A stretch of 64,000 bases of DNA from a virus. Its lineage: Duplodnaviria > Caudoviricetes. The stretch lies in IMG/VR virus record IMGVR_UViG_3300042892_002922, positions 192,001 to 256,000 of that record; one strand, 5' to 3'. Positions within the stretch are counted from its first letter, which is position 1, and the number at the start of each line of letters is the position of its first letter. The notes beneath the pieces were generated by a model. The model had not been told where the DNA came from, searched no databases, and saw only the letters and a list, made by a program, of their open reading frames with translations. Positions 10,593 through 56,039 of the stretch are shown piece after piece. A program made the position numbers and the translations under genes.

Positions 10593-11267
10593 ATGGGTTT
10601 ATATAGAGGACCAAAAATATTTACTGAAGGTTTAACATTTGCTTTAGACGCTGGAACCACAAGGTCATATCCTGGTACGGGGACATCTTGGACAGCTATT
10701 AGAGGTAATAGTGTTGGTACACTATATAATGGTGTTGGTTACACAACTGCCAAAGGTGGTGGTTTAACTTTTGATGGATCAAATGACTATGTTGAGTTAG
10801 ATAGAAATGACATTTTATTAGGCACAAACCCATTTACATTTGAATGCTTTTATACTATAAATGCAACTAATGGGGGTGGTGAAATATTTGGAACATATGG
10901 TTCAGGATATTCATCATCAAGTTATGTTTGGATATCTGGTGAATATGGATTTTATATTGGGGGTGCGGTTTATTTTCCCGGATACCCACTTGGTGCTGGA
11001 ACATATTGCATGACAGTAACCAGAACAAGTTTTGGATACACAGTTTTGTATAAAAATGGCGTAGCTGTTAGTACCGGAACACTAACTGGAAGTTTAACTG
11101 CCGGACCAAATTATAGAATCGGTGCTGACACAACTAGTGCAGGTGGTGTTGGTGGTGAGAGATTAAATGGGACTGTTTATTCAATAAAAGTATATGACCG
11201 AGATTTTACAGCGGATGAAGTTTTAAATAATTATAATGCACAAAAATCAAGATACGGATTAACTTAA
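10593..11267 (+). CDS. LamG/concanavalin A-like lectin domain protein
   Basis: GLTFALDAG..SYPGTGT.W; FDGSNDYV; IKVYDRDFTADEVLNNY..K.RYGL. Confidence 0.7.
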   Translation: MGLYRGPKIFTEGLTFALDAGTTRSYPGTGTSWTAIRGNSVGTLYNGVGYTTAKGGGLTFDGSNDYVELDRNDILLGTNPFTFECFYTINATNGGGEIFGTYGSGYSSSSYVWISGEYGFYIGGAVYFPGYPLGAGTYCMTVTRTSFGYTVLYKNGVAVSTGTLTGSLTAGPNYRIGADTTSAGGVGGERLNGTVYSIKVYDRDFTADEVLNNYNAQKSRYGLT

Positions 11268-11277
11268 AATTAAAAAT

Positions 11278-11607
11278 ATGTTAGAAAATAGAAGATGGTT
11301 AGTAATACCAACAAGCACAACTGGTTCAATAAATTTTGACCAAGTAAAAGAGTCAAGTATCGATAGTTTAAGGTTATCTGTCGATGGGTCTAAGACGTTT
11401 GTTAAATACGATGTGATGGTTGTTGAAACAACCACAACTGAAACTCAAATAAACGCAGAAACTGGCGATGAAATGACAATTACAACTGAAGCTGGAATTT
11501 ATGGTAGACCAGACATATACTCAGAAGAATATCCTGAGTATACTCATGAAGCAATTTTAGAATTATTAAGCACAACTGAATGGACAACGCCAATAGAAAA
11601 TAAATGA
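11278..11607 (+). CDS. Small acidic phage protein accompanying LamG heads
   Basis: FDQV.ESS..SLRLSVDGSKTFVKY...YTHEAILELLST.EWT pattern; position between LamG genes. Confidence 0.5.
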   Translation: MLENRRWLVIPTSTTGSINFDQVKESSIDSLRLSVDGSKTFVKYDVMVVETTTTETQINAETGDEMTITTEAGIYGRPDIYSEEYPEYTHEAILELLSTTEWTTPIENK

Positions 11608-12833
11608 GTGTAAACATACCAAACATAACAAGCGATGGATTAGTTTTTGGATATGACGCACATCCTAGTAGTAGGTTTGCGCCAGGACCTCCATTGAGAA
11701 ATGTTGCAGCATCAATATCATTTGGTTATGGTAATCAAAATAGTTCACTGTTTAAAAAACAAAATTCAATATACACGGCGGTAATCCCTAATGTTGGAAC
11801 AAGAACAGTGTATGCTGTTGAAACATATAATGATTATAATGGTGGATCGGGCAACTGTTGTTTATCACTTTTTAATTTTGGTGGTGGCGTTAGTGTTTCA
11901 TCAAGCACACCATACACTTATCAAATAATATACCGTACAAAAAACGATAATGTTGGTACGAATTATATGTATCATTATGAATATGGTCCTAGTGGTTACT
12001 TAACAGAATATGGTTTACATAGTACAAGTACTAGGACAGCTTTAGGTGATGGATGGTGGCACGCTTGGGGTCAATTCACATCTCACGCAAGTGCAACCTC
12101 ATTTGGTTTATATCTTTTTCATTATGAATATGGTGTACATAATAAAGTTGAGGTTGCGGATGTTTCATTAACTGCTGGTAGTAGTATTTTAAAACCATCA
12201 CAATTTCCAACAGTTGGAACAACACGTGCAAGTACTTCGTCGTTATTGGATTTAAAAGGTGCTACTGCAATTAGTACCGCTGACATTAGTTATAACTCAA
12301 ATGGGCTACCATTTTTTGATGGGACAAATGATTGGATAAATTTAGATAGTTATGCAACAACGGTCCCGAATGGTAACATAACTGTGGAGGCGGTTGTTAA
12401 ATTCACGGCAATGAATGCAAATAAAGTAGTTGTAGCACATGGTGGTAATGGTTCAAATGATAAAGGGTTTTTGTTCTTATATGAAAACTCAACTTATGGT
12501 TTAGCATTTGCAATCTACGACAATCCAAATTTTGGTTGGGCTAGAACCGGTATTGGTAGCCCTGCAACACAATACGTGAATCAATACATTCATATGGTTG
12601 GTACATATGATAATGAATATGTTAGATTGTATATTAATGGTACGTTAATCCAAACAGTACAATTTACTGGTGGATTTGAAAGACAAAACACATTTAGGAT
12701 TGGTAATGAAGTTAATAGAAGTTATTTTATGAGTGGCGAAATACCTGTTGTTAAATTGTATAATAAAGCATTAACGGCAACAGAGATAAAAAATAATTAT
12801 AATGGATATAAAGGTAGATATGGTTTAACATAA
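11604..12833 (+). CDS. LamG-like protein with additional carbohydrate-binding-like domain
   Basis: GLVFGYD N-terminus; FDGTNDW; HMVGTYD; EIPVVKLYNKALTATEIKNNY. Confidence 0.65.
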   Translation: MSVNIPNITSDGLVFGYDAHPSSRFAPGPPLRNVAASISFGYGNQNSSLFKKQNSIYTAVIPNVGTRTVYAVETYNDYNGGSGNCCLSLFNFGGGVSVSSSTPYTYQIIYRTKNDNVGTNYMYHYEYGPSGYLTEYGLHSTSTRTALGDGWWHAWGQFTSHASATSFGLYLFHYEYGVHNKVEVADVSLTAGSSILKPSQFPTVGTTRASTSSLLDLKGATAISTADISYNSNGLPFFDGTNDWINLDSYATTVPNGNITVEAVVKFTAMNANKVVVAHGGNGSNDKGFLFLYENSTYGLAFAIYDNPNFGWARTGIGSPATQYVNQYIHMVGTYDNEYVRLYINGTLIQTVQFTGGFERQNTFRIGNEVNRSYFMSGEIPVVKLYNKALTATEIKNNYNGYKGRYGLT

Positions 12834-14362
12834 TGAATATAGGTCCAAGAAATATTACCAACGGTTTAGTTTTCGGATATGATACTGGAGACGATAATAG
12901 ATTTTATCCTGGTGAACCAACAACAAACTTATTGCCAAGTCCAGAACATAATGGTAGATTTTCAACAAGTAATGGTTGGGGTTCATATAATACAAACAAA
13001 TATTGTGGTAACAATGGTTGTGCGGTACATTGGACAATCCCATCAATATCAAGCGTATCAAGTAATATTATAACAACATCAAGTGCCCATCAAATATTAT
13101 CATTTGATGTTATTCAACCTAACGCAACTGGAGGCGGTGTAAATGCTGGACAAAATTATGTTGCTAAAAAAATAAGTGATACACAATTTTCATTACATGA
13201 ATATAATGGTTCTCAAGATGGTTCACAAGGTTATATAAACCCAACGACTGGATTTTTTAAAGTACATGATGCATATGCTAATGATACTAGAATATCTGTA
13301 AGCGCTTCTGGATTTCCGACTGGGTGGTGGGGTGCGCCACATTTACCAAATTCAGGTTTAATTAAAGAAGTAGTTACCGGTGGTGGCAGAATACCCGGAA
13401 CAAATTGTATGAGATTACATGCTTATAGACCAGATGGTGTGACTGACGGTATGGCATATGGTGTGTATACTCCGGTAACCGCTGGACAAATAATAACATT
13501 ATCATTTTGGCATAAAGCAGCGTCACCAACATCTGTTGGACAAAGTCATAGCTGGAGTACATATTTTTATGGATACTCAGCACCAAGTGCGGGTTTCACA
13601 ACAGGAGAAAAATGGCAAAAACACCAAACTACTTGGACAGCATCACTTACCTGTAGTTTTTATTTTTATATGTGGCCTTCGGCTTTATCAACATTTGATA
13701 TCGCTGATTTACAAGTGGAGGTTAAAGACCACGCAACACCATTTACATTAACATCTAGATCTAATACAACAGCATTATTAGATATGACAGGGACATGTTC
13801 AATTGATGTTTCTAACGCGTCATTTAACATTTCTGGTAGACCTTACTTTGATGGTACAAATGATAGTATAATAGTAACAAACAATGCGGTGCTAAAAAAT
13901 AATGTAACATCCATTGAGTTTATTGTCAAATACAACGGTGCACCTAATGGTGATATTATTCAAATGGGTGTCGGTAGTGGTTCATATGCACAATATTACT
14001 ATAGAGCGTATAGTGGTAATTCATATTGGAATTTTTTCCCAACAGGAACATCAGCTTATGGTAGTATAACAATACCAAATTCAGCATTCACGATTGGACA
14101 ATATTATCATGTTGTTTTAGTTGGTAGGTCTGATAGTTCGGTTTCGTTTTATATTAATACGGTTGCGCAATCTGGCGCGGCGGTAAGTGCAACAAGTGCC
14201 GTTGGTTCTTGGACCCCAGCAAATCTAACAATTGGCGGTTTTACTTGGGATGGTTATTCAAATTCAGAAATACCTGTTGTTAAAATTTATAATAGGGAAC
14301 TATCAGCGGCTGAAATTAAACAACACTATTACTCATACAAAACCAGATTTGGTTTAAGTTAA
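12833..14362 (+). CDS. Multi-domain LamG-like protein
   Basis: GLVFGYD N-terminus; FDGTND; EIPVVKIYNRELSAAEIKQHY; paralog of 11604. Confidence 0.65.
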   Translation: MNIGPRNITNGLVFGYDTGDDNRFYPGEPTTNLLPSPEHNGRFSTSNGWGSYNTNKYCGNNGCAVHWTIPSISSVSSNIITTSSAHQILSFDVIQPNATGGGVNAGQNYVAKKISDTQFSLHEYNGSQDGSQGYINPTTGFFKVHDAYANDTRISVSASGFPTGWWGAPHLPNSGLIKEVVTGGGRIPGTNCMRLHAYRPDGVTDGMAYGVYTPVTAGQIITLSFWHKAASPTSVGQSHSWSTYFYGYSAPSAGFTTGEKWQKHQTTWTASLTCSFYFYMWPSALSTFDIADLQVEVKDHATPFTLTSRSNTTALLDMTGTCSIDVSNASFNISGRPYFDGTNDSIIVTNNAVLKNNVTSIEFIVKYNGAPNGDIIQMGVGSGSYAQYYYRAYSGNSYWNFFPTGTSAYGSITIPNSAFTIGQYYHVVLVGRSDSSVSFYINTVAQSGAAVSATSAVGSWTPANLTIGGFTWDGYSNSEIPVVKIYNRELSAAEIKQHYYSYKTRFGLS

Positions 14363-33558: not shown

Positions 33559-33590
33559 GTTTTTTGACTTTTTTTAGTTATATTAGTAAT

Positions 33591-34025
33591 ATGATATACT
33601 GGTTAACAGGCCAACCCGGCGCAGGAAAAACAACCTTAGCAAAATACTTAGTGGAATACTTTCCGAAAGATGAGGTTACTCACATCGATGGGGATGACTT
33701 AAGGGACATCTTTAAAAACAAGGACTATTCCATAACAGGTAGAAGATTAAACATCCAAAGAGCACAATACATTGCACAATTTATGCATAGTAAGGGACAT
33801 AATGTTATTGTGTCCTTAGTTTCACCATATAGAGACCAAAGAGAAGAATTTAAATTTAGTACATCGGTTGTCGAGATTTATGTACATACCACAGAAGATA
33901 GAGGTAGAAACCAATTCCATGTTGAGGAATATGAACCACCATTAGAAAATTTTATAGACATAGATACAACAATAAAAAACGAAACAGATTCGTATTTTGA
34001 ACTATTAAAAAAATTATCATTATGA
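33591..34025 (+). CDS. cysC: Adenylyl-sulfate (APS) kinase (start refined from 33564)
   Basis: IYWLTGQPGAGKTT P-loop; IDGDDLR; VIVSLVSPY...R; VEIYV. Confidence 0.8.
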   Translation: MIYWLTGQPGAGKTTLAKYLVEYFPKDEVTHIDGDDLRDIFKNKDYSITGRRLNIQRAQYIAQFMHSKGHNVIVSLVSPYRDQREEFKFSTSVVEIYVHTTEDRGRNQFHVEEYEPPLENFIDIDTTIKNETDSYFELLKKLSL

Positions 34026-34537
34026 TGACAAATGGTATTATCATTGACAATTTTTTAGACAATGTTGATGAAATAAGAGAGGAAGCGTTGTTATTAGATT
34101 ATACTAAATCATTACCTGAAAGTGAAGGTTGGAAAGGGTTTAGGTGTTTAAATGGAAACATGTTGACACTTGATTTACATGAAAAGATTAAAGAAAAGTT
34201 AGTTGAAACTAATATAAAATTTGATAATTGTGATATGAGGTGTTTTTTTCATTATACATTGGAAGAACATAATGTAGGTAAAAAAAACACACATCGTGAT
34301 TATGGTTTTGATTATGCTGGGGTTTTATACCTAGCACCAAACCCACAAAAAAATTCAGGTACGTCTTTTTATAATGATTTAGGTGAAGAAACCGGTTACT
34401 TGGAAAACGTTTATAATAGATTAGTAATTTATCCAGCGAATGAGTTACACTCTTTAAAAGAATCTTTTGGTAACGATATTAATAATGGTAGATTAACTTT
34501 CACGTTTTTTTGTAAATTAAAAAATAACAATATATGA
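34022..34537 (+). CDS. 2OG-Fe(II) oxygenase-like protein
   Basis: IIIDNFLDN; HRD; GVLYL..P..NSGTSFY; YNRLVIYP...H; RLT. Confidence 0.7.
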   Translation: MMTNGIIIDNFLDNVDEIREEALLLDYTKSLPESEGWKGFRCLNGNMLTLDLHEKIKEKLVETNIKFDNCDMRCFFHYTLEEHNVGKKNTHRDYGFDYAGVLYLAPNPQKNSGTSFYNDLGEETGYLENVYNRLVIYPANELHSLKESFGNDINNGRLTFTFFCKLKNNNI

Positions 34538-34914
34538 GTAAGAAATATGCAATGTACATCGGTAGGTGGCAAAATTGGCATAAAGGTCACGAATGGTTGA
34601 TCCGTCAACAAATGGACCAAGGTAAGAACATATGGGTAGCTATTAGGGATGTTGAAGTTGACGAGAACAACCCTAAAACAGCTCAAGAGGTTTTTCAAAT
34701 GTTAATCCAGGAGCCCTTTTTTAACGAGAATTTTGATAAGATTTTACTATCAATTATCCCAGATATCGAATCGGTTAATTACGGTAGAGGTGTTGGTTAC
34801 GATGTAATTTATCATGAGCCACCGGCGGATGTTGCGGTAATAAGTGGAACTGCGATTAGAACTGGACATATGACCGCTGATGGTTCAATAAAATATGACC
34901 AAACAAAAGGATAA
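34534..34914 (+). CDS. HIGH-family (cytidylyltransferase-like) nucleotidyltransferase
   Basis: YIGRWQNWHKGH (HxGH); ISGTAIR C-terminal motif. Confidence 0.75.
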   Translation: MSKKYAMYIGRWQNWHKGHEWLIRQQMDQGKNIWVAIRDVEVDENNPKTAQEVFQMLIQEPFFNENFDKILLSIIPDIESVNYGRGVGYDVIYHEPPADVAVISGTAIRTGHMTADGSIKYDQTKG

Positions 34915-35129
34915 TGATTGTAGAACGTAAACGACATATTGCGAAAACAATATCCTATCGCATTATAAGCACTATAATAGGTTTCCTTATAATGTGGTGG
35001 GTTAGTGGATCAATTAAGATTGGCGCGACCTTTGGTGTGGCTGAATTGGTGTACAAACCTATTCAATATTACCTACACGAAAGGATTTGGTATAGATGGA
35101 TAAAGTTCGGGGTAAAAGATAAAAAATAA
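34914..35129 (+). CDS. DUF2061-like small membrane protein
   Basis: RHIAKTISYRIIST...YYLHERIW. Confidence 0.75.
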   Translation: MIVERKRHIAKTISYRIISTIIGFLIMWWVSGSIKIGATFGVAELVYKPIQYYLHERIWYRWIKFGVKDKK

Positions 35130-35153: not shown

Positions 35154-36641
35154 ATGAGAACAGTATTGATAGGATCAGATTTTATGTACGATAAGGATGG
35201 TAATTTAAGACCCATCGAAATAAACACTGCGGTTGGTTGGGATGGTCCCGAAAAAGTGGAAGACGATGCAGATTGTTTGGATTTAACAAGTTTATATCAA
35301 TTTGTTGAGGATAATAATTTCCAAACGATACATTATGTTGGTGATATTGGTCCATTACACGTGACATTAATGACACATTATAGCGGAAGTTCTGTTACAT
35401 ATGAATTTCATGGGGTTGGAGCTACTTCCATTACAGTTCCATACATAGAAGATACTGAAACGACTTTAATTATTAGGAGTGCATATGACACAACAGCACT
35501 AGTGGATGACACATATTGTAAGGATAAAATAGAGTTCATGAATCTAATTAAAGATTCTTCTTTTGGCTCCCAATTTGCGTACATTGACGAAAATAACACA
35601 TTGGTGTCAAATATCACATCTATAAATGATAACGGCGAACACCCTAATTTTATTTTAAAATCTAGATTTCCAGGTTATGACAAGTTAATTTATCCAAAAT
35701 TTTTTAAAGTTACAACTCAATCTGAATTAGACACTATAATAGCAAATAATGTTACAAGTGAGTATTTTTTAATGGAGTACCTATGTAACGTCAATAAACT
35801 ATGGGAAGGGCATTTAACGGTTATAAGAAGTTTAAACATTTTAGTCCCACCAAATTTAGAATCAATTCAAATTGGCCAATATACAAAATTGAATCAAAAT
35901 ATGTTACTAGATAATGTGACATATGATTCAATCACATTTGAAGTATATTCAGATTTCAAAGAGAGTTATAGTACAAACCCACCTACCGGTTTTCAACCTA
36001 AATTATTGAATACTGATATGGTAGAAATGGCAGATGGGACATTAAAAACTGCATTGGATTTACAAATTGGGGACGTTATTAAAACAATTGAAATACCAAA
36101 TGAAAAGGGAACTAGTATAGATAGTTACGTATCCTCCGAATTTGGGCTTACGTACGATACGTTGGTAAGTGATGCAATATATACAACTAATGTCGTAACC
36201 AAAAAACAAAAAGTAAACACCTTAACTTTTATAAATGAATTAACATTTGAAGATGCTAGTACCTGGGAAGATACTATGGGCTCAAAGTATTTGATAGACA
36301 GAGAAGGTGTGGTTATGTTTAAATCATTATGGGGGATATTTCCAGGAGATGTGGTTATATTATTAGATACTACTGATGATAATATAAATTTTGTAAGAAA
36401 AACAGTTACATCAAATATTCAAGTTAAGAGAGTGTTCTCTGGTTGGTTTATTTCAGTTGATACCGCTATGTTATTTTTAACTAAAACAGCCGGGTCAACC
36501 AATAACGAATCATATGTTTCAATTGAACATAACCTTATATCTTGTCCCAATTGGACATGTACAAACGTTTGCTGGTCCGTCTGTCCATCATGTCCGAAGT
36601 ATATGTCTTGTCAATCTAATTACTGTTTTCCAGTATGTTAA
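35154..36641 (+). CDS. Circularly permuted ATP-grasp-like domain + degenerate Hint domain + C-terminal 8-Cys peptide
   Basis: N-terminal SDFMYDKDGNLRPIEINT (D..ExN), FILKSR, YFLMEYL; residues 283-460 KLLNTDMVEMADG.LK...DLQIGD...YVSIEHN; tail LISCPNWTCTNVCWSVCPSCPKYMSCQSNYCFPVC. Confidence 0.6.
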   Translation: MRTVLIGSDFMYDKDGNLRPIEINTAVGWDGPEKVEDDADCLDLTSLYQFVEDNNFQTIHYVGDIGPLHVTLMTHYSGSSVTYEFHGVGATSITVPYIEDTETTLIIRSAYDTTALVDDTYCKDKIEFMNLIKDSSFGSQFAYIDENNTLVSNITSINDNGEHPNFILKSRFPGYDKLIYPKFFKVTTQSELDTIIANNVTSEYFLMEYLCNVNKLWEGHLTVIRSLNILVPPNLESIQIGQYTKLNQNMLLDNVTYDSITFEVYSDFKESYSTNPPTGFQPKLLNTDMVEMADGTLKTALDLQIGDVIKTIEIPNEKGTSIDSYVSSEFGLTYDTLVSDAIYTTNVVTKKQKVNTLTFINELTFEDASTWEDTMGSKYLIDREGVVMFKSLWGIFPGDVVILLDTTDDNINFVRKTVTSNIQVKRVFSGWFISVDTAMLFLTKTAGSTNNESYVSIEHNLISCPNWTCTNVCWSVCPSCPKYMSCQSNYCFPVC

Positions 36642-36670: not shown

Positions 36671-36760
36671 ATGGCAACAATTATATCAAATACAGACATC
36701 AATACTTTAAACACCACAATTACAACAATAGGTAGTTTAATTGTAACAGCAAACAGTTAG
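36671..36760 (+). CDS. 29-aa Thr/Ile/Asn-rich peptide, not in ORF track (MATIISNTDINTLNTTITTIGSLIVTANS)
   Basis: ATG after A-rich leader taaataaaaa, TAG at 36758-36760; fills a gap in an otherwise gap-free operon. Confidence 0.6.
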   Translation: MATIISNTDINTLNTTITTIGSLIVTANS

Positions 36761-36783: not shown

Positions 36784-37317
36784 ATGATACATTTCATACC
36801 AAATATTCTTACTAAGGATGAGTGTGAATACTTAACGAATCAATTTGATTTCGAAAGAAAATATCAAATCTCGGTGGATAATGAATATACTGGCACCAAT
36901 ATATCATATGGGTTTGCCCCTTCATTTGCGTTTAATACCTATTTAAATAAATTAAAATCAAAAGTGTTAGAATATAACAATAATTTTGATGATTTATTCA
37001 ATGTAAACACATTTGTTAGGGAATATATGAACACCTCAATGTTAAAAAAACATTTAGATAGAAAAGACATTAGTGTTACTATGTCTATATGTTTAGAATC
37101 CACAATAAATAAAGAATGGCCGTTATGTGCGGAAATCGGAAATAAGGAATATTGTTTCAACACAAATATTGGTGACGGTATTTTATTATTTGATGCGGAT
37201 AAAATCACACATTGGAGGGAACCCTTAATATGTCTGGAGAAAGAAAGAGTTGTCCAATTTTTTTTACATTGGAAACCTTCTGATTACGTCGCAAAAAAAA
37301 CAAAATCATTATTATAA
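36784..37317 (+). CDS. 2OG-Fe(II) oxygenase-like; ends KKTKSLL
   Basis: LKKHLDR; ISVTMSI; GDGILLF...HWREP. Confidence 0.75.
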   Translation: MIHFIPNILTKDECEYLTNQFDFERKYQISVDNEYTGTNISYGFAPSFAFNTYLNKLKSKVLEYNNNFDDLFNVNTFVREYMNTSMLKKHLDRKDISVTMSICLESTINKEWPLCAEIGNKEYCFNTNIGDGILLFDADKITHWREPLICLEKERVVQFFLHWKPSDYVAKKTKSLL

Positions 37318-37328
37318 AAAAATAAATT

Positions 37329-37913
37329 ATGCCATTTACATATACAATAGAGTCAACCTTTTTAACAAAAGAAGAATGTGATTTAATATTAGATTTTTCA
37401 TTAAAAGAATTAAAATTAGTACCATCGGAAATTCTTACCAATTACACCGATGGTGGCGACGTTAATACCGATATTAGAAAATCAAATCAAGTATTTTACC
37501 CCTATTATAAAAAATTTCCATTTTTATTAGAAAAAATGAGTAAATTATTAAATCAACATATTTTTGTTAAAGGGTTCGATTTAGATTTTAAAGAAAGTCA
37601 ATTTCAGTTTACTGAGTATCATCCAGGCGGACATTTTGGCTGGCATAGAGATGCTCATGGAAAAAAAATAACGGATTATGACAGGTATTGTTCATTAGTG
37701 ATACAACTAAATGATGAGTATGGAGAGGGTGATTTACAAATAAAAGATGATCAGAATGGGACCCTAACAGTTGAAAAGGGTACAGGAAATTTGATATTAT
37801 TTTTATCAAATATTGAACATAGAGTAGTGCCAGTAAAAAGTGGGATTAGATATACACTAGTTAATTGGGTGAAATTAAAACAAAAAAAAGATTATAAAAA
37901 AACACTTTTATAG
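37329..37913 (+). CDS. 2OG-Fe(II) oxygenase (PKHD/prolyl-hydroxylase-like); ends YKKTLL
   Basis: QFTEYHPGGHFGWHRD; EGDLQI; HRVVPVKSGIRYTLVNW. Confidence 0.85.
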   Translation: MPFTYTIESTFLTKEECDLILDFSLKELKLVPSEILTNYTDGGDVNTDIRKSNQVFYPYYKKFPFLLEKMSKLLNQHIFVKGFDLDFKESQFQFTEYHPGGHFGWHRDAHGKKITDYDRYCSLVIQLNDEYGEGDLQIKDDQNGTLTVEKGTGNLILFLSNIEHRVVPVKSGIRYTLVNWVKLKQKKDYKKTLL

Positions 37914-37914
37914 T

Positions 37915-38232
37915 ATGAAAATAAATTTTAAAGAAATATTAAATGCGTGGTATAATGTTATAAATCACACACCAGAACAAAAGGAATTAGCAGATAAAAG
38001 ATTCGCAATATGTTTAGAATGCCCCTCTAAAATAGAAATTTTAAAATACAAGAAATGGCTTTTTAAATGTAAAGAATGTGGTTGCCCTTTAGGCGCAAAA
38101 GTTTACACTGAAACAACATATCTTACTAAAGACAAATCTTGTCCACTTGATAAATGGAAAGAAGTTGAAATGGAATTTATGAGTAAACATAGTGACACGA
38201 TTAAATATAAAACTAAAAAAACATTTCTTTAG
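37915..38232 (+). CDS. Small Cys-rich (putative metal-binding) protein; ends TKKTFL
   Basis: RFAICLECP; CKECGCPL.AK; CPLDKW. Confidence 0.6.
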   Translation: MKINFKEILNAWYNVINHTPEQKELADKRFAICLECPSKIEILKYKKWLFKCKECGCPLGAKVYTETTYLTKDKSCPLDKWKEVEMEFMSKHSDTIKYKTKKTFL

Positions 38233-38234
38233 TT

Positions 38235-38924
38235 ATGGGTTATTTAATAAACGATGACCTTTTATGGGTGATCACCCCTAAATGTGCTAGCGACTCAATA
38301 GAAACTGCATTATTAAACTCAAGTTTAAATTTAAAAAAATATAGCGAACACTTCGAACAACATACCCATATGCATATACCACTAAACGAGTGCTTAACTA
38401 AGTTTGGTAAAAAAGAAACAATATGTATCACTAGAGATTGGTTTGAAAAATGGTTAAGTTCATTAAATTTTATTTGGGATTATATAGAATTATATAGTGA
38501 ATATGAACCAGTATGTAAATGGGAGGACATCAATAATAATGTTATTTATGAGATATTTGATAGCGAATTTGTAAATAAACTTTACTCATTAAATCATACC
38601 TCTAATGAAGAATGTTTTTTGAAATTATTAAAAAGGAACACCGAAGATATTATAAACGTACCCAAAGAAATTTATGGAATAATAATAACTCTAATATCTG
38701 AACGCTATTGGAAAAGTAATGTAAAATGCACATATGAATTTGATATTAAAAAATTAGACGATTTTGTCAATTTCATTGAAAATAGGTTTGGTGAAAAATT
38801 AATAATAGAAAAGAAAAACGTATCTACAAAAAGACCAAATAAATTAATAGTAAATAATGAATTGAAATCTTTTGTTTGGGAAAAATTTGAAAAAATATTT
38901 GAAAAAAGAAATCAATTAATTTAA
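38235..38924 (+). CDS. Sulfotransferase-family protein; ends KRNQLI
   Basis: WVITPKCASDSI (5'-PSB-like); TRDWFEKWLSS (3'-PB-like). Confidence 0.65.
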   Translation: MGYLINDDLLWVITPKCASDSIETALLNSSLNLKKYSEHFEQHTHMHIPLNECLTKFGKKETICITRDWFEKWLSSLNFIWDYIELYSEYEPVCKWEDINNNVIYEIFDSEFVNKLYSLNHTSNEECFLKLLKRNTEDIINVPKEIYGIIITLISERYWKSNVKCTYEFDIKKLDDFVNFIENRFGEKLIIEKKNVSTKRPNKLIVNNELKSFVWEKFEKIFEKRNQLI

Positions 38925-38925
38925 T

Positions 38926-39594
38926 ATGGCAACTATTTGGACATTTGGGGATTCATTTACTTCTGGAGACGGGTGTGTAGAAAACCTAAGAATTAGAGAC
39001 GGTGATTTTAGATATTATAACGAATATAAAAAACTAGGCAGTGATATATGGCCTAATTTATTAGGTAAAACTTTAGGATATGACGTAAAAAATCTAGGAA
39101 AAAGCGGTGCAAGTAATGACTATATTTTAGATTCTATTATTGATAATTTTAACATGATAGAACCAAATGATGTGGTGATAATTGAAAAAACATTTTACCA
39201 AAGATTTGATATACCTAAATCAACGGGTGATGGGTTTCAAACAATTTATGCTGAAGGACTTTATCAACTTTCTATTGATTTAAAAATGGAAAGATATTTT
39301 TGTGAAGATAAATTAGAAATTGAAACGGTATTAAATTATGGTGTTTTATTTTCCGACAATAAATTATTTAAAGAAAGACAAGATAAACGATTTGAATTTA
39401 TACAAGCACAATTAAATAATAAAACAGATAAAATATTAATATGGGATGTTTTAGATTTTTTAGACGGTAAAATTGAAACAATAGGTCAACACACTGAGGG
39501 TAATATAAAAGATTATCATTTTAGTTTTAATGGTCATAAAAGATTTAGCGAATTTCTATATAAAAAATTATATATTAAACCCTCATTAGTTTAA
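38926..39594 (+). CDS. SGNH/GDSL-like protein; ends KPSLV
   Basis: TFGDSFT; NLGKSGASND; DYHFSFNGH. Confidence 0.7.
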   Translation: MATIWTFGDSFTSGDGCVENLRIRDGDFRYYNEYKKLGSDIWPNLLGKTLGYDVKNLGKSGASNDYILDSIIDNFNMIEPNDVVIIEKTFYQRFDIPKSTGDGFQTIYAEGLYQLSIDLKMERYFCEDKLEIETVLNYGVLFSDNKLFKERQDKRFEFIQAQLNNKTDKILIWDVLDFLDGKIETIGQHTEGNIKDYHFSFNGHKRFSEFLYKKLYIKPSLV

Positions 39595-40326
39595 ATGTTA
39601 GTCGATAAAAAATTTATTTTTATAAGTTTACCAAGATGCGCATCAACATCATTTATGATTAGGTGTGTTAAAAACAAAATACCAATAGAGCATTTCAACT
39701 CAAACCATGATAATCAGTTGATTAAAATCAATGAATGGGAAAAAATGGGTAATGAAGAATTGGCGGATAGATTAGTACATGCGCACGAACCATTACATAT
39801 GTTACAAGAAAAATTTGGGACGAACAACCAAATTATTTCAATAAAACGAAATAAGTACGATAGATTTTTATCTTTATGGAAACACATCATAGACGAATTA
39901 CACAGAATTAACAAACTTGATATTGCTGACATCTTTTCAAAATTAACAACTAATGATCTGTTTGTTAATATTAAACCAAATGACATTTATAATTCGGAAA
40001 ATAGAATTAAAGTTATTGATAATTTTTTATCTAGGTTAGAAATTTCAAAAGAAGAATCTTACACTAAAAATATGTTAGATATATTGTTTATGCCAGTAGT
40101 TGAACTTACAAATAACGACCCAAATATTATCTGGTTTGATATTAACAGTTTGAGAGATTTAGAAAATTGGGTGTCAAAAAAACTAAATAGAGATTTTAAA
40201 ATGGAAAAAATAAATTCAAGTAAACATTTTAATTCAGTAATGGAGAACGATGATAATTTTAAACAGAAATATGATAATCTTTATAAAGAATTTGACCAAA
40301 GAAAAACAACTAAAACATTATTGTAA
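39595..40326 (+). CDS. Sulfotransferase-family protein; ends TTKTLL
   Basis: FIFISLPRCASTSF; KRNKYDRFLSLW. Confidence 0.65.
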   Translation: MLVDKKFIFISLPRCASTSFMIRCVKNKIPIEHFNSNHDNQLIKINEWEKMGNEELADRLVHAHEPLHMLQEKFGTNNQIISIKRNKYDRFLSLWKHIIDELHRINKLDIADIFSKLTTNDLFVNIKPNDIYNSENRIKVIDNFLSRLEISKEESYTKNMLDILFMPVVELTNNDPNIIWFDINSLRDLENWVSKKLNRDFKMEKINSSKHFNSVMENDDNFKQKYDNLYKEFDQRKTTKTLL

Positions 40327-41495
40327 TGGAAATTCAATTTTGGTATAGCGATATTTTACCAAATACAAATATTAGAAATTCAATCGAAAAAATAGATAGT
40401 GACATCTTATTTAAAAATATCCACACCGATAAGGTAGATGTTACAAAATTAAATTTTTTATTTTTTTTGTTAGAAACTGAATGGACTAATTCCGATATCC
40501 CAAACATAGCGTATACTCATTCTAGTGAATTTATTGAATTACTAATTAAGTTACAATCTGAAAATTTCTATTTTATGTGTAATAATTCTGGGGAAGCCGA
40601 ACTTTGGGTGGATAATTTATCCTTGAATTTTTTTAATTTGTTAAAAAAAAATAAAATTGATTTTAACAGATTAATAATTGTAAATAACGATTCATCTAAA
40701 ATTGGTATAGGTAAAACAAAATATGGGGATTTTATATTAAACACCTGTTTTTTTCCTAATTTCTTTTTATCTACCTATGAGCATTTAAAGTCATATGTAA
40801 CTGAATTAAACCCTAACACCATACCTGATAAAAAATTCTTATGTTTAAATAGAAGAATGGGTTATGAAAAATATAAATTAATCGAGAGGTTATATCATAT
40901 GGGGTTGTTAAATGACACCAGATTTTCTTGGGTAAAAAATAGCACGAATAAAAATCTGTTAAATAAAGAATTACTTAATGAATTAAACATAGATGTTGAT
41001 AACTTTAACCCTATTCAGTTAGAAGATGATGTAATGTATGGTGCTGATTTAGTTATGGAAAAGTATCTTTACACCATAAACCCCAAATGGTATTATAAAA
41101 GTAAAGTTAATATTATATTGGAAACAATGCTATACCCAAATTCAATTCATCTGACAGAAAAAACCTGGAAAGCAATTTATTTAGGTGTCCCGTTTGTTAT
41201 ATATTCACCATCTAAACACTATCTTAAAACCTTAAGGGATATGGGATTCAAGACATTTAATTCTGTGATTAATGAGGATTATGATGAGATGCTAGGTAAA
41301 GATAAAATAACACAAGTTATAAAAAGCGCTGAAGAACTGGCTAGTATCTATGACACCCCCAAAGTATTAGATATATGTAGATTTAACCAAGAATTATATT
41401 TTAATTTTCAACACAGAAAAAAAATATATAATGAGTTTTTTTTAAATAAAATTTGTGATGTTAAAAACTTAACAATTCCTAAAACATTAATTTAA
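40326..41495 (+). CDS. FxxLNR/SEK family paralog 3; ends PKTLI
   Basis: FLCLNRR; LTEKTWKAI..GVPFV..LKTLRDMGFKTF..INEDYD. Confidence 0.45.
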   Translation: MEIQFWYSDILPNTNIRNSIEKIDSDILFKNIHTDKVDVTKLNFLFFLLETEWTNSDIPNIAYTHSSEFIELLIKLQSENFYFMCNNSGEAELWVDNLSLNFFNLLKKNKIDFNRLIIVNNDSSKIGIGKTKYGDFILNTCFFPNFFLSTYEHLKSYVTELNPNTIPDKKFLCLNRRMGYEKYKLIERLYHMGLLNDTRFSWVKNSTNKNLLNKELLNELNIDVDNFNPIQLEDDVMYGADLVMEKYLYTINPKWYYKSKVNIILETMLYPNSIHLTEKTWKAIYLGVPFVIYSPSKHYLKTLRDMGFKTFNSVINEDYDEMLGKDKITQVIKSAEELASIYDTPKVLDICRFNQELYFNFQHRKKIYNEFFLNKICDVKNLTIPKTLI

Positions 41496-42545
41496 ATGGG
41501 TAATAAAATTGATTTAAAAAATTATACGTGTAGTGTGCCATTTACATCATTAGAAATACATAACAATGTTTGTTTTGTGTGCTGTCCATCCTGGTTACCA
41601 AACAAAGTAGAACTTAGTGAAATTCCATTAAAAGATGTTTATAATAGCGAACCAATTATTGATATAAGAAACTCGATATTAGATGGTTCATTTAGATATT
41701 GTAGTCAAGAGCTTTGTCCTTATTTAAGTAAATTAGTGAAGTATGGTGCGGAATCTGGGCCAGTCACTTTAAAATCAAATTCAAATGTTAATAGCCCTAT
41801 TGTAAAAAATAACGCACCAGATTATTTGATGATGAATTTTGATAGAACATGTAACTACAAATGTCCATCATGTAGAGTTGATTTAATAGTTGAAAATAGT
41901 GAGGGTATAAAACGTGTAGAAAAAACAATAGAGGAGATTGATAATCACTACTCGAAATATGTTAAAACCCTATATATTACTGGATCAGGGGATCCGTTTG
42001 TTTCTGTCGGATTCAGAAATTATCTAAGAAATTTTAACCCTAAAAAATACCCAAACTTAAATTCCATACACCTACACACAAATGCGTCTATGTGGAATAA
42101 AGAAATGTGGGATAGTATGCCAAACATACACGGATATGTCCACTCTTGTGAAATTAGCATCGACGCTGGTACAAAAGACACCTATGAAAATAAAACCAGG
42201 TTGGGTGGTAAATGGGATAATTTAATTGATAATTTAAAATTCATAAGCACTCTACCAATTTCAGTTAAAACATCATTTGTGGTTCAAGATTCCAATTACA
42301 TGGAAATGGGTATTTTTTACAACTTAATGTACTCAATATTTGGTAAAAGAGTAAATGTGTTTTTTGGTAAGATAACTAATTGGGGGACATTTTCAGAAGG
42401 TGAATTTAAATTAAAACAAGTATGGGATACGGAACATCCAGAACATGAGTTATTTAAAAAAGAGTTTAATAAAGTATGGAAAAATGAAAACCTTTTTCAT
42501 AATTTATATGAGTTTATTGACAACACAAATAAAACTTTAATATAG
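41496..42545 (+). CDS. Radical SAM protein, paralog of 32437; ends NKTLI
   Basis: YTCSVPF..VCCPSW; CSQELCP; DRTCNYKCPSCR; ITGSGDPF. Confidence 0.85.
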   Translation: MGNKIDLKNYTCSVPFTSLEIHNNVCFVCCPSWLPNKVELSEIPLKDVYNSEPIIDIRNSILDGSFRYCSQELCPYLSKLVKYGAESGPVTLKSNSNVNSPIVKNNAPDYLMMNFDRTCNYKCPSCRVDLIVENSEGIKRVEKTIEEIDNHYSKYVKTLYITGSGDPFVSVGFRNYLRNFNPKKYPNLNSIHLHTNASMWNKEMWDSMPNIHGYVHSCEISIDAGTKDTYENKTRLGGKWDNLIDNLKFISTLPISVKTSFVVQDSNYMEMGIFYNLMYSIFGKRVNVFFGKITNWGTFSEGEFKLKQVWDTEHPEHELFKKEFNKVWKNENLFHNLYEFIDNTNKTLI

Positions 42546-43106
42546 ATGAGAATTTTAATACTATCACATACAAGATGTGGTTCTACCACATTATGTAAAT
42601 GGATATCAAAAGAATTGAATTTTGAAGTAGATTATGATCATTACGATGCTAACACATTTAATTCAATTTTCATTAAAAATAATATAATAAAAAAAATTGT
42701 TATCGAAGAATACAATCCACCAAATGAAGTTATTGAAAAATTTGATAAAGTTATTTGTTTAAGTAGGGAAAATAATATTGACAGTGCCATAAGTTTTATT
42801 AATGCTGATAACAAAAGCAGGTGGCACGACATATATGAAATAACAAATGAGTGGATTGAAGATAATAAAAATAAAATAATAGAAACTGTTTACAAATATG
42901 AACAATTAAAAACCTTATTAAAAAATAAAGATTTATTTCAAATAACGTATGAAAATATGTATATTAATAAAATAGACGTTAATAGAGTTATTAGTTATTT
43001 AAACATTGAAAACCCAAAACATTTGGATATGCTTGATTATGATAAAAAATATAGAAAAGACACATATACTTTAACACATGATTTTAAGAGAAAAAATATC
43101 ATTTAG
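42546..43106 (+). CDS. Sulfotransferase-like (Stf0-type) protein; ends RKNII
   Basis: ILILSHTRCGSTTL; LSRENNIDSAIS; ITYENM. Confidence 0.6.
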   Translation: MRILILSHTRCGSTTLCKWISKELNFEVDYDHYDANTFNSIFIKNNIIKKIVIEEYNPPNEVIEKFDKVICLSRENNIDSAISFINADNKSRWHDIYEITNEWIEDNKNKIIETVYKYEQLKTLLKNKDLFQITYENMYINKIDVNRVISYLNIENPKHLDMLDYDKKYRKDTYTLTHDFKRKNII

Positions 43107-43608
43107 TAAAGATGAGTGTGATTACATAATAAATTTATCCAAAGAGTTGGATGAACTTAAACCATTTGGTTATGATGACAATGTTAATAAAGAAAAAATA
43201 ACAATTAGATATTTTGTTTGGGTTATCAATAGAAACAATAAAACCCAATGGATATTTGATAAAATTCAAACGTATTTTATAAATAAAACTAATATAAAGA
43301 TAAAAAAAGAATTAGATAAAATATATATACACAAATATGACACCGGCCAACAATTTGAAAAACATGCTGACACATATTATAAAACACAAATACACAATGT
43401 AGGGGTATGTTTAAACAATGATTATGATGGAGGTGAATTTGTTTTATATAATCCAGAAGAACAATTACCAAAAGAAACGGGTAACATATATACTTTCCCT
43501 AGTCAAAGAATACATGAAGTAAAAAAAATAATAAAGGGTGAAAGGTGGAGCATTATTGGATTTTTACATATTGATAATTTAGATTTCCCTAAAAAATCAC
43601 TAATATGA
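43078..43608 (+). CDS. 2OG-Fe(II) oxygenase; ends KKSLI
   Basis: FEKHAD; LNNDYDGGEF; HEVKKIIKGERWSII. Confidence 0.85.
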   Translation: MILREKISFSKDECDYIINLSKELDELKPFGYDDNVNKEKITIRYFVWVINRNNKTQWIFDKIQTYFINKTNIKIKKELDKIYIHKYDTGQQFEKHADTYYKTQIHNVGVCLNNDYDGGEFVLYNPEEQLPKETGNIYTFPSQRIHEVKKIIKGERWSIIGFLHIDNLDFPKKSLI

Positions 43609-44162
43609 AAATTGGAATAACAGGACATTCTAACGGAATTGGAAATGACATTTATTCAAATTTAATAAAAGAATATGATGTTATAGGATTTAGTAGAAGT
43701 AATGGTTTTGATATTAAAAATACGGATAAAATTATAGAACAATTGGATGATTGTGATATTTTTATAAACAACGCTTACGAAGGAAACTATCAAACAATAT
43801 TATTTGAATTAATTTTTGATAAATGGAAATTTTTACCAAAAACAATTATTAATATGAATAGCAGTTGTGTGTATCATTCATCCGATTGGTCGCCAGAATA
43901 TGCAAATAATAAAAAAGAGTTAAAAGAAGTATCTTTAAATGCGATTAGAAATAATAAAAATAAAAAAGTTAGGGTCATAAATTTATATCCATCCACCTTA
44001 TCAACTCATATGGGGTTTGAAAGTTTAAATAAATTAGATACTGAAAATCTTGCAAAAATTATAAATTGGTTAATAAAACAACCACAAGAAATAGAAATTA
44101 GAGAGATGAGTATATATTGTACAACATTGGAGAAAGAATTTAAAACAAATAAATTAATATGA
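43605..44162 (+). CDS. Short SDR/Rossmann oxidoreductase; ends TNKLI
   Basis: IGITGHSNGIG; FINNAY; YANNK (YxxxK). Confidence 0.75.
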   Translation: MKIGITGHSNGIGNDIYSNLIKEYDVIGFSRSNGFDIKNTDKIIEQLDDCDIFINNAYEGNYQTILFELIFDKWKFLPKTIINMNSSCVYHSSDWSPEYANNKKELKEVSLNAIRNNKNKKVRVINLYPSTLSTHMGFESLNKLDTENLAKIINWLIKQPQEIEIREMSIYCTTLEKEFKTNKLI

Positions 44163-54428: not shown

Positions 54429-55202
54429 ATGCCTTTAGATATTAATAGTAATATAATCAGTTCATCAGATATAACAAGTACTGGTATTTTTAAAACTAAA
54501 GTGCAGAGAGATGGGATGGTTTTACATTTAGATGCCGGTGATCTTGATTCATATCCAGGTAGTGGAACTGCGTGGAATGATTTAAGTGGTAATGGTTATA
54601 ATTTTATTATAAACGCATCGGCTTACAATTCCTCTGGACCAAAATATATGGACTTTAATGGTTCATATGGTTGCGCAAAGAAAACAAGTTCAGATGTCCC
54701 TTTGTCTGGTAATGCAACATGTATTTGCTGGACTAGAGTTAAAAATAGTACTGCGGAATGGAGAACTTTATTACGAGGTTTAAGTTCAGGAGCAGACCAC
54801 CAAGTGATTATTCAATCAGGTGCGTGGGCAATCGGTATGTACGATAACACAAATGGTACAGGTTTTAATAGTAACGGATTTAGCCAACAAAGTTTACCAG
54901 CATATGGCACATCTTCTTGGGATATGTTAGTTTGGAGATGGTACGATGCTGAAGTTCCTTATCATCTCTTTAGTTATAATGAAACTGCGGGGGTTATACG
55001 AGGATCAATTTCAAGCTCAAATGCAAGATTTAAACATGGTTTTTGTTCTGTTGGCGCATACAACAACGGAGACCAAAATAACCCAAATGCATCAAGTCAA
55101 CCTTGGGGTGACATTGGAATGATATCACTATATGATAGAGTTTTACATCCTTACGAAATAAACGAATATTATCAAGCAACAAGAGCTAGATTTGGTAGAT
55201 AA
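54429..55202 (+). CDS. LamG-like protein
   Basis: GMVLHLDAG..SYPGSGTAWNDLSGN; LYDRVL...EI...Y.A.RARFG. Confidence 0.7.
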   Translation: MPLDINSNIISSSDITSTGIFKTKVQRDGMVLHLDAGDLDSYPGSGTAWNDLSGNGYNFIINASAYNSSGPKYMDFNGSYGCAKKTSSDVPLSGNATCICWTRVKNSTAEWRTLLRGLSSGADHQVIIQSGAWAIGMYDNTNGTGFNSNGFSQQSLPAYGTSSWDMLVWRWYDAEVPYHLFSYNETAGVIRGSISSSNARFKHGFCSVGAYNNGDQNNPNASSQPWGDIGMISLYDRVLHPYEINEYYQATRARFGR

Positions 55203-55211
55203 AATAATTTT

Positions 55212-56039
55212 ATGGGTATAGATATTGGCGGAAACGTATTTGATGCAACTGATTTTAACCCAAGCGGTGAGGCGGCAAGCCCTGCGGTTGTGACCAGAGG
55301 ATTGGTGTTATGGTTAGATAGTGGAAACAATGCATCATATATTAACACATCCAACTATTATGATTGTGGATATGGATGTCAATACTACTCATCAAATCCC
55401 GGCTGTACGAATTGTAACACTCAATGGAAAGATATGAGTGGTAATGGGTACGATGGAACATTCAACGGTGCTACGGCCATCTCATATAATGTTGGAGGTG
55501 GGTCAATTTATTTTAGTGGGTCTCCTGATTTTGTGAGTGCTGGTAATATAGGTTCATTCTCAACATTTACTGTTGAAATTTGGTTTAAATCAGATTCAGT
55601 TTCTAACTATAAAAATCCAATCGATTGTAATTTTTTAGTGTTTAATGGAGGGGCTAGTGGATATAGTAATATTGGACCAAGATTGGAACAAGATTCAAAT
55701 GGAACACTAGGTTGGGTTGTTGGAGATGCTGCGGGAAACTATACTGGAGTTAATGTTGTACCATCAGGATTGAGTTCCTCTGGAATACATTGTGCCGTTA
55801 TTACTAAAACAGGTGCAAGTAGTTTTTTAAGTTATTACAATGGGACTAATGCATCAAGTTTAACTTTTTCAAATTGGACGGGAACTATGGGTAACGTAAA
55901 TATTGGCAGAGGATTTAGCACAAGTGCGGAAAGATGGTTTAATGGTGGTGTGTCAATCGTAAGAATATATAATAGAGCATTATCCGCATCCGAAATTTTA
56001 CAAAATTATAATAATGGAAGAGCAAGGTTTGGAGTTTAA
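55212..56039 (+). CDS. LamG-like protein with Cys-containing insert
   Basis: GLVLWLDSG; YDCGYGCQYYSSNPGCTNC insert; VRIYNRALSASEILQNY. Confidence 0.7.
   Translation: MGIDIGGNVFDATDFNPSGEAASPAVVTRGLVLWLDSGNNASYINTSNYYDCGYGCQYYSSNPGCTNCNTQWKDMSGNGYDGTFNGATAISYNVGGGSIYFSGSPDFVSAGNIGSFSTFTVEIWFKSDSVSNYKNPIDCNFLVFNGGASGYSNIGPRLEQDSNGTLGWVVGDAAGNYTGVNVVPSGLSSSGIHCAVITKTGASSFLSYYNGTNASSLTFSNWTGTMGNVNIGRGFSTSAERWFNGGVSIVRIYNRALSASEILQNYNNGRARFGV

Follow-up and report, generated by a model that had tools for sequence, protein, structure and literature searches.

The open reading frame (ORF) at positions 35154-36641 on the plus strand of a 64,000 nt stretch of IMG/VR record IMGVR_UViG_3300042892_002922 (hereafter the window, at its full length) encodes a 495 aa protein of a tailed phage. 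We tentatively interpret this product as a self-processing protein of three parts, in which a ligase, a Hint domain cutting at its own C-terminal end and a cysteine peptide would cooperate to form an amide bond within the gene module that encodes them. The three parts were delimited as follows.

35154..35987, plus strand: likely ATP-grasp amide-ligase domain, aa 1-278, assigned from the AlphaFold2 (AF2) model, structural alignment and conserved residues
36000..36533, plus strand: predicted Hint/BIL-type autoprocessing domain, aa 283-460, assigned from structural alignment, Foldseek and column statistics
36534..36641, plus strand: eight-cysteine cargo peptide, aa 461-495, with the stop codon, delimited by tail statistics and the predicted scissile bond N460-L461

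The ORF is a genuine, conserved gene and not a chance one, since 767 homologs were found in a set of 5.8 billion proteins, the family still comprises 328 clusters at 50% identity, and a His-Asn pair described below is conserved among its members. The source databases name none of these homologs beyond "hypothetical protein". Homologs of known source are viral: 50 relatives were located on viral contigs in IMG/VR, which reach 335 kb, and the Atlas clusters that contain relatives are 96-100% viral and assigned to Uroviricota. No match to the fusion gene was found among cultured phages (50,697 records, searched by tblastn and megablast), and no relative was found in the GTDB species-representative bacterial and archaeal genomes in a scan that used close-relative patterns only. 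The query protein had no meaningful match in Pfam or PHROGs, and a profile search of the PDB sequences matched nothing. AlphaFold DB holds one uncharacterized protein of the same two-domain layout (E = 1e-20). A full-text literature search combining ATP-grasp, Hint and phage yielded no description of such a fusion among papers judged by title and abstract. The fusion is built from known kinds of parts in a layout that we did not find described.

The structure was modeled twice by AF2. The first model, built from 21 close sequences, represented only the C-terminal half well and gave a poor N-terminal domain with a predicted local distance difference test score (pLDDT) of 60. The second, built from 113 diverse sequences, reached a pLDDT of 89.6 and a predicted template modeling score of 0.87, with pLDDT >90 across residues 1-278. 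It shows an ATP-grasp domain at residues 1-278, a Hint domain at 283-460 and a tail after Asn460. Both folds, which had originally been predicted from the sequence alone, were thus recovered in the model and also in structure searches. Residue conservation was counted over the 113 diverse family members.

Residues 283-460 have a Hint fold in the model. VIA-align matched this part to inteins, the C. thermocellum BIL domain, Tetrahymena BIL2 and hedgehog with Z-scores of 13-14.7 over 136-148 residues, and Foldseek gave E-values of ~1e-6. Intein residue 1 is thereby matched by K283 and the terminal Asn by N460. Relatives of the protein give PT-HINT or Intein_splicing matches in Pfam and the query itself gives none; P0192 matches PF07591 at E = 3.4e-4, which is below the cut-off, and the neighboring Atlas clusters are 75-100% PT-HINT.

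The residues that inteins need at the N-terminal junction are missing from the family. Position 1, K283 in the query, is H, K, L or I family-wide and never Cys, with Ser or Thr in 10 of 113 members. Block B reads T374-M-G-S377 in the query, as originally noted, and its His position is occupied by S, T or A throughout. Position F:4 (S434 in the query) is D, S, T or N and never a conserved Cys, and F:13 (M439 in the query) is D or H family-wide. The terminal pair is retained, with His G:6 (H459) in 107/113 and Asn G:7 (N460) in 111/113 members, including relatives down to ~25% identity. The residue at +1 is L461 in the query and Y, L, F, A, G, S, V, D, P or others in the family, the first Cys following at +2 to +5. 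As the position-1 nucleophile and the block-B His are absent family-wide, N-terminal thioester formation and splicing are excluded on the residues present, and the earlier view that this Hint can neither splice nor cleave at its N-terminus holds for its relatives as well. Judged in the same way, the fusion protein is not an intein, because it has no Cys, Ser or Thr at position 1, no block-B TxxH and no Cys, Ser or Thr at +1; only C-terminal cleavage is possible. A class-3-intein-like mechanism using a block-F nucleophile was also considered and rejected, because F:4 is D, S, T or N and is not conserved.

Self-cleavage at the predicted N460-L461 bond is well supported by this pattern of conservation. 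The main argument is that His-Asn, the only conserved catalytic feature of the Hint, has been selectively retained across deep divergence. Even when the N-terminal steps do not take place, Asn cyclization can cleave the C-terminal junction (PMC4031507), and HINT domains that immediately precede variable toxin domains have been interpreted as releasing autopeptidases (PMC3482391).

The segment beyond this junction is a small and highly variable cysteine-rich peptide. In the query it comprises residues 461-495 with Cys at 464, 469, 473, 477, 480, 486, 491 and 495; the Leu at +1 and the eight cysteines had been described correctly, but the length of 35 aa counts L461 itself rather than the residues following it. 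The tail is ≤80 aa in 182 of 220 full-length members and contains 8 (132 members), 6 (38) or 10 (5) cysteines. P, S, G, Y and N abound in these tails, whose content of C is 19%, of D 2.6% and of E 1.8%. The expectation that homologs would conserve the enzyme and vary the Cys tail was borne out: the mean pairwise identity among 116 close homologs was 0.72 in the ATP-grasp domain, 0.64 in the Hint and 0.23 at the non-Cys positions of the tail, and the last value was 0.60 and 0.44 at ATP-grasp identities of 0.93 and 0.84, respectively. The C-terminus of the tail is not conserved, and searching the Atlas with only the tail yielded no usable match. Zn binding by the tail was judged less likely than disulfides or cross-links, given cysteine counts of 6, 8 and 10 and one CxxC pair in the clade.

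Different modules occupy the same place in other relatives. In twin-Hint relatives (P0231, P0232, P0235, P0206, P0180, P0220, P0253, P0178 and P0262, including one with three tandem Hints), a second, canonical Hint comes after the Cys segment; it starts with Cys1, ends with His-Asn and is followed by KK. Single-Hint cousins have an unbroken ...GG-x-K end where this second Hint is found. The inserted canonical Hint resembles an element of the BIL or intein-like kind whose +1 residue is not a nucleophile. Nine relatives (P0172, P0182, P0185, P0189, P0197, P0204, P0213, P0215 and P0233) carry a longer Cys-rich cargo and then a Peptidase_S74-type domain, which Pfam detects in P0172 only (E = 0.0021, below the cut-off) and which was assigned to the other eight by the shared motif ...K-S-D-x3-K-x-N-I... 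Peptidase_S74 is a self-cleaving intramolecular chaperone typical of trimeric tail fibers and spikes, and its presence hints that some of the cargos it bounds may be fiber-like or trimeric. Some relatives extend for 700-1200 aa with BACON domains after His-Asn, and three (P0230, P0234 and P0238) have only 5-7 residues there. By these sequence comparisons, modules are exchanged at the junction after His-Asn, and self-cleaving domains often enclose the Cys segment; the two observations fit the release of a cargo. The proposed release of the tail thus gained support from the conservation of His-Asn and from the relatives in which a second Hint or S74 bounds the Cys segment.

Residues 1-278 likely form an ATP-grasp domain with the circularly permuted topology of glutathionylspermidine synthetase (GspS), YgiC and eukaryotic glutathione synthetase (GS), and the modeled active site is likely intact. 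After the Hint matches, the next structural matches of the model were all ATP-grasp amide ligases of this one type. VIA-align of residues 1-278 against the class gave Z-scores of 7-8.1 over 190-223 residues. The best were YgiC with ADP (7uka, Z 8.1, model 1-276 against chain 94-378) and the nematode GS-like proteins 5oet and 5oeu (Z 8.0), followed by 3k1t (Z 7.8), E. coli GspS (2io7, Z 7.7, model 1-277 against chain 310-608) and 3n6x (Z 7.4). Further structural matches were T. brucei GS, homoglutathione synthetase and Cp1B (9cjn), and Foldseek matched yeast GS (1m0t, E = 1.5e-5) and 3kak likewise.

The GspS, YgiC and GS alignments are colinear from residue 1, those of LysX/ArgX, RimK and TTL begin only at about residue 55, and the first 30 residues of the relative P0248 match positions 142-170 of the 188 in a RimK profile (E = 0.036), namely its C-terminal metal-binding part. 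This is the pattern expected of a circular permutation and agrees with the permuted, GspS-type ligase of the original prediction. In the family, D9, E22, N24, R108, D118 and R225 are invariant, and T25, D100, A115, Y121, P164, N165, K169 and P181 are at least 90% conserved. The putative Mg2+ triad D9/E22/N24 lies at the extreme N-terminus, where a metal motif had been proposed, but its spacing is D-x12-E-x-N and not D-x9-E-x-N as claimed. K169 (112/113) and R225 (113/113) are found at plausible strand positions and are candidate ATP or phosphate binders. An AlphaFold DB cluster annotated as "Piwi domain-containing" (A0A7C5WAC9) matches the ATP-grasp domain with its residues 202-492 (E = 3.2e-9) and could be a cellular relative, in another fusion, of this truncated ligase domain.

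The characterized structural relatives couple a carboxylate, mostly that of a peptide C-terminus, to an amine (PMC12568646). Homoglutathione synthetase and Cp1B are amide-forming ATP-grasps (PMC12568646), and YgiC and YjfC are described as peptide-spermidine ligases in a passage of the same article that cites Pederick et al., 2023.

The fusion gene is embedded in a module of co-oriented genes, listed below.

36671..36760, plus strand: gene for a 29 aa micropeptide, supported by a micro-ORF at 52 of 52 loci and by codon-position diversity
36784..44162, plus strand: 11 co-oriented tailoring-enzyme genes with a C-terminal tag, from listed C-termini and tag counts
33564..35129, plus strand: upstream module of APS kinase, DUF6445, a small HxGH protein and DUF2061, from Pfam and synteny

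The micropeptide is rich in Thr, Asn and Ile and ends in I-G-x-L-I-V-x-A-N-S. A micro-ORF of 25-45 aa is located directly 3′ of the fusion gene in 52 of 52 loci examined and is recognizably of the same kind in 49, the likeness being weaker in loci L002 and L005. In locus L004, whose fusion gene is a BACON variant, the downstream ORF is unrelated and a likely micropeptide homolog is found just upstream of the fusion gene. The nucleotide diversity of the micropeptide gene at the three codon positions is 4.5, 3.0 and 11.2; this dominance of the third position indicates that it codes for protein and is under purifying selection. The fusion gene has no other partner as constant as the micropeptide. 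The possibility that it is the C-fragment of a split intein was rejected, because the Hint of the fusion protein is structurally complete and the peptide has no block-F motifs.

The 11 enzyme genes further downstream encode 2-oxoglutarate (2OG)-Fe(II) oxygenases, radical SAM enzymes and others, and their products end in K-x-K-[TKNS]-L-[IL]-COOH. This tag is present on about ten consecutive enzymes of unrelated folds, and it was also found in loci L001, L002, L005, L058 and L059 and in 45 IMG/VR loci. Over the 52 loci, many of which are related so that the counts do not represent independent events, the tag frequency was 55-81% at gene positions +1 to +9 downstream of the fusion gene, 6-26% upstream and 1.6% among internal 4-mers. 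In some lineages, the tagged genes are located upstream of the fusion gene instead. The fusion gene and the tag travel together across lineages of 26-85% identity, and the arrangement recurs in at least six lineages at <50% identity. The alignment of 2OG oxygenase homologs from cultured cyanophages stops at residue 181 of 194, and the one such homolog whose gene end was read has no tag.

The codon usage of the tag (Leu, Thr and Ile) is near background, the stop codons vary, and the tag persists in 29% of cases where the next ORF is >30 nt away, against a background of 1.6%. These results argue that the tag is a feature of the proteins. A by-product of nucleotide-level signals for translation initiation or gene overlap was rejected as its main cause; ATGA overlaps add some bias to the final ATA or TTA codon. 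As an alternative reading, the tag resembles basic-hydrophobic C-terminal recognition signals such as the ClpX signal of MuA. A complex prediction for the fusion protein with ATP and the last 25 residues of a tagged 2OG oxygenase reached 0.02 where the mark was 0.32; it counts neither for nor against binding. Among the tagged products is a small Cys-rich protein (CxxC ... CxxCGCP ...), encoded at 37915-38232 in the window and at 11893-12078 in L004, where it is kept beside the BACON variant that otherwise has no tagged block.

The composition of the neighborhood is also conserved. It is fully syntenic in a relative at 77% identity, and 2OG-Fe(II) oxygenases and radical SAM enzymes, one of these of the B12 type, again flank the relatives at 26-27% identity. 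Individual distant loci add a SET methyltransferase, a Trp halogenase (L005), APS kinase, the small HxGH protein or DUF2061. Compared with NCBIfam, two of the radical SAM enzymes gave only sub-threshold, generic matches of the twitch/SPASM type. Upstream of the fusion gene in the window, Pfam identified APS kinase, DUF6445 (2OG-like), a small HxGH nucleotidyltransferase-like protein and DUF2061; APS kinase, the HxGH protein and DUF2061 also precede the fusion gene in L001, L058 and L059, with other genes between in two of them. As the tagged enzymes include sulfotransferase-like proteins (N-terminal ...PR[TS]G), the APS kinase upstream and these enzymes together suggest, from their sequences, that sulfation may be part of the module.

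The window is AT-rich (~25-44% GC) with mostly co-oriented genes, among which are genes for collagen-repeat proteins, Laminin_G_3 proteins, glycosyltransferases, sugar epimerases and PHROG virion structural proteins. From this gene content, the fusion gene is placed in the fiber and glycosylation region of a tailed phage. A second C-terminal motif, [KR]-x-R-[YF]-G-[LRV]-[TS]-COOH, is found in the window on five fiber or Laminin_G_3-type structural proteins (10593-11267, 11604-12833, 12833-14362, 54429-55202 and 55212-56039), for example as ...KSRYGLT, ...KTRFGLS and ...RARFGV.

In the mechanism that we propose, Asn460 would cyclize to a succinimide and cut the N460-L461 bond, freeing the 35 aa cargo with a new alpha-amine; we hold this step with fair confidence from the residues retained. 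The release is likened to that by Hints upstream of variable modules in polymorphic toxins. With its even number of cysteines (8, 6 or 10), the cargo would be a mini-protein knotted by disulfides or cross-linked in some other way, and diversifying selection would act on it. The ligase domain, for its part, probably forms an amide bond on the C-terminus of a peptide encoded in the same module. This is weakly suggested by analogy, as the characterized structural relatives activate a carboxylate, mostly the one at a short peptide's C-terminus, and couple it to an amine. Candidate carboxylates are the micropeptide end ...A-N-S-COOH, the enzyme tags K-K-T-L-[IL]-COOH and the C-terminus of the cargo itself, which would lead to head-to-tail cyclization, and the amine unmasked by the Hint would be the obvious acceptor. 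The module as a whole would comprise the 3′-phosphoadenosine 5′-phosphosulfate (PAPS) genes, the fusion protein, the micropeptide and the tagged oxygenases, radical SAM and sulfotransferase-like enzymes, and most likely it makes a modified peptide or a peptide-protein conjugate that is used late in infection or on the virion. A more specific version, which we consider unlikely, is a single-turnover conjugation in which the ATP-grasp domain would join the unmasked amine of the cargo to the micropeptide end or to the enzyme tags; with no greater likelihood, such a conjugation may combine ligase and Hint into an ATP-driven logic analogous to that of sortase or ubiquitin.

Several observations weigh against this interpretation. 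The ATP-grasp fold and its intact site are likely rather than proven, because the Z-scores of 7-8 are moderate, leaving the assignment to the consistency of the hits and the motifs, and because no ATP-grasp model of Pfam matched the query or eight of nine diverse relatives at E ≤ 10; the residue-level roles of K169 and R225 are putative, drawn from conservation and position. In the Hint, the block-F helpers of Asn cyclization in inteins are replaced (S434 at F:4 and M439 at F:13), leaving only His G:6. The residue at +1 is Pro in 13 of 220 members, which would make a poor amine for ligation. The variants with 5-7 residues after His-Asn keep both ligase and Hint, as well as the neighborhood at both loci read, and these tail-less forms imply that the Cys peptide is not needed for the conserved core function. 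Twin-Hint variants keep the ligase even though a Hint thioester could activate the peptide C-terminus. Finally, the two other candidate carboxylates at the locus, the micropeptide and the tags, complicate the step from cargo release to cargo ligation.

These points have to be weighed together with what other explanations can cover. Release could be the whole function of the Hint, the variable cargo (a Cys knot, a BACON adhesin or a fiber-like segment) acting alone in host binding, against the host or as a decoration of the virion, and the ATP-grasp domain leaving the cargo untouched and doing a separate job such as a YgiC/GspS-like peptide-polyamine ligation or the modification of a fiber glycan. 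A constant N-terminal part with unrelated cargo modules swapped in after it, as seen in PT-HINT toxins (PMC3482391), the PT-HINT content of the nearest Atlas clusters and the location between virion structural and glycosylation genes are all in line with it, as are the S74 and BACON cargos, which are typical virion-surface parts and of which one BACON variant adjoins a tail sheath gene. We nevertheless regard it as doubtful, since it accounts neither for the constant fusion of a ligase, its catalytic residues intact, ahead of the Hint nor for the tail-less variants that retain both domains, and since the gene downstream is a conserved micropeptide rather than an immunity-like variable gene. 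At the opposite extreme, the Hint might be a degenerate relic serving as a spacer or for binding, with the Cys tail as an attached knob that binds metal or is stabilized by disulfides. Hint relics are numerous, and the N-terminal nucleophile, the block-B His, the F:4 Asp and the F:13 His are all missing in the query. However, His-Asn is kept in 95-98% of members at ~25% identity while the other catalytic positions drift, and the cargo modules are exchanged exactly at the His-Asn junction; a non-cleaving Hint is therefore very improbable in our judgment.

Two further explanations, both of them rather improbable to us, assign the substrate differently. In one, the micropeptide is the true substrate and serves as a scaffold: the ATP-grasp domain would attach an amine (amino acid, polyamine or released peptide) to its conserved C-terminus, the tagged enzymes would then tailor the attached group, and Hint cleavage would mainly activate or regulate the ligase. 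Such logic resembles that of LysW/LysX or pearlin systems. The micropeptide is indeed the most constant partner, under purifying selection and present even with tail-less and BACON variants, tailoring enzymes are co-located in every lineage, and the structural relatives of the ligase act on peptide C-termini (PMC12568646). Yet the end of the micropeptide differs in the most distant loci (...DTL, ...KHL and ...KHT instead of ...ANS), and the hypervariable Cys cargo is left unexplained. In the other, to which we give equally little credence, the Cys tail would be modified while attached, by the neighboring radical SAM, 2OG and sulfotransferase-like enzymes, like the core of a ribosomally synthesized and post-translationally modified peptide (RiPP), with the ATP-grasp and Hint domains as its leader and the tags for docking, before Asn cyclization releases it; the ATP-grasp domain may even cyclize the tail head to tail. 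A conserved body with a hypervariable tail mirrors leader and core, radical SAM and 2OG enzymes occur in all lineages and a Trp halogenase in L005, the tags travel with the fusion gene, and the twin-Hint layout mirrors engineered cyclization set-ups with two inteins. On the other hand, tail-less variants have no core, the C-terminus of the tail is not conserved, and the same classes of enzymes could equally tailor a fiber glycan.

If cleavage and ligation both prove true, the three-part protein that we favor would be a natural system in which a Hint provides a fresh amine and a fused ATP-grasp domain provides an activated carboxylate. It would offer a new route to peptide-peptide and peptide-protein conjugates or to cyclic cysteine-knot peptides, and a compact tool for protein engineering. 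Even a conservative reading defines a large, previously unannotated family of viral proteins that falls into hundreds of clusters, a new class of phage peptides that are rich in cysteine and hypervariable, and a conserved module of a micropeptide and C-terminally tagged tailoring enzymes. These findings suggest that phages may run organized pathways for tailoring peptides or proteins beside their fiber and glycosylation genes.

Among known systems, the enzymes that are closest to the ligase part are GspS, YgiC/YjfC, GS, homoglutathione synthetase and Cp1B, which are its best structural matches, are colinear with residues 1-278 and likewise have an acidic/Asn metal motif ahead of the nucleotide-binding part. 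The phage domain differs from GspS, YgiC and GS in that it has no detectable sequence-profile similarity to them, lacks their ~90-300 N-terminal residues, is viral and is fused to a Hint. The arrangement of the Hint recalls that of PT-HINT toxins, in which a Hint is located immediately upstream of a hypervariable, exchangeable C-terminal module (PMC3482391), and relatives and the nearest Atlas clusters match PF07591. In contrast to those toxins, the phage proteins carry an enzyme at the N-terminus instead of a secretion or filament domain, their cargo is in most cases a Cys scaffold of 30-60 aa in place of a toxin domain, and downstream we saw a conserved micropeptide and no immunity gene. The query itself also falls below the Pfam model and has no nucleophile at position 1.

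BIL domains and the BUBL BIL2 of Tetrahymena are among the top structural matches (6y75/6tmm and 2lwy). BIL2 has been described as a platform that dispenses single ubiquitins, in which Hints that serve autoprocessing and conjugation rather than acting as selfish inteins flank a small cargo domain (PMC8616854), and the twin-Hint relatives of the phage protein share this layout of Hint, Cys peptide and Hint. Whereas BIL2 uses Cys1 thioester chemistry without ATP, the first Hint of the phage protein has no nucleophile and is fused to an ATP-dependent ligase.

Graspetides including microviridins, PGM1-type ligases, LysW/LysX and pearlins likewise place an ATP-dependent ligase near genes for small peptides and tailoring enzymes, and the graspetide, PGM1-type, LysW/LysX and pearlin systems form an amide bond at a peptide terminus. 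The phage ligase belongs to another ATP-grasp class, with GspS/GS-type structural neighbors, and the phage tail has no core of Thr/Ser and Asp/Glu (D 2.6% and E 1.8%). Unlike in the graspetide and carrier-peptide systems, the peptide of the phage is joined to its ligase through a predicted self-cleaving domain, and the enzymes of its module share a C-terminal tag.

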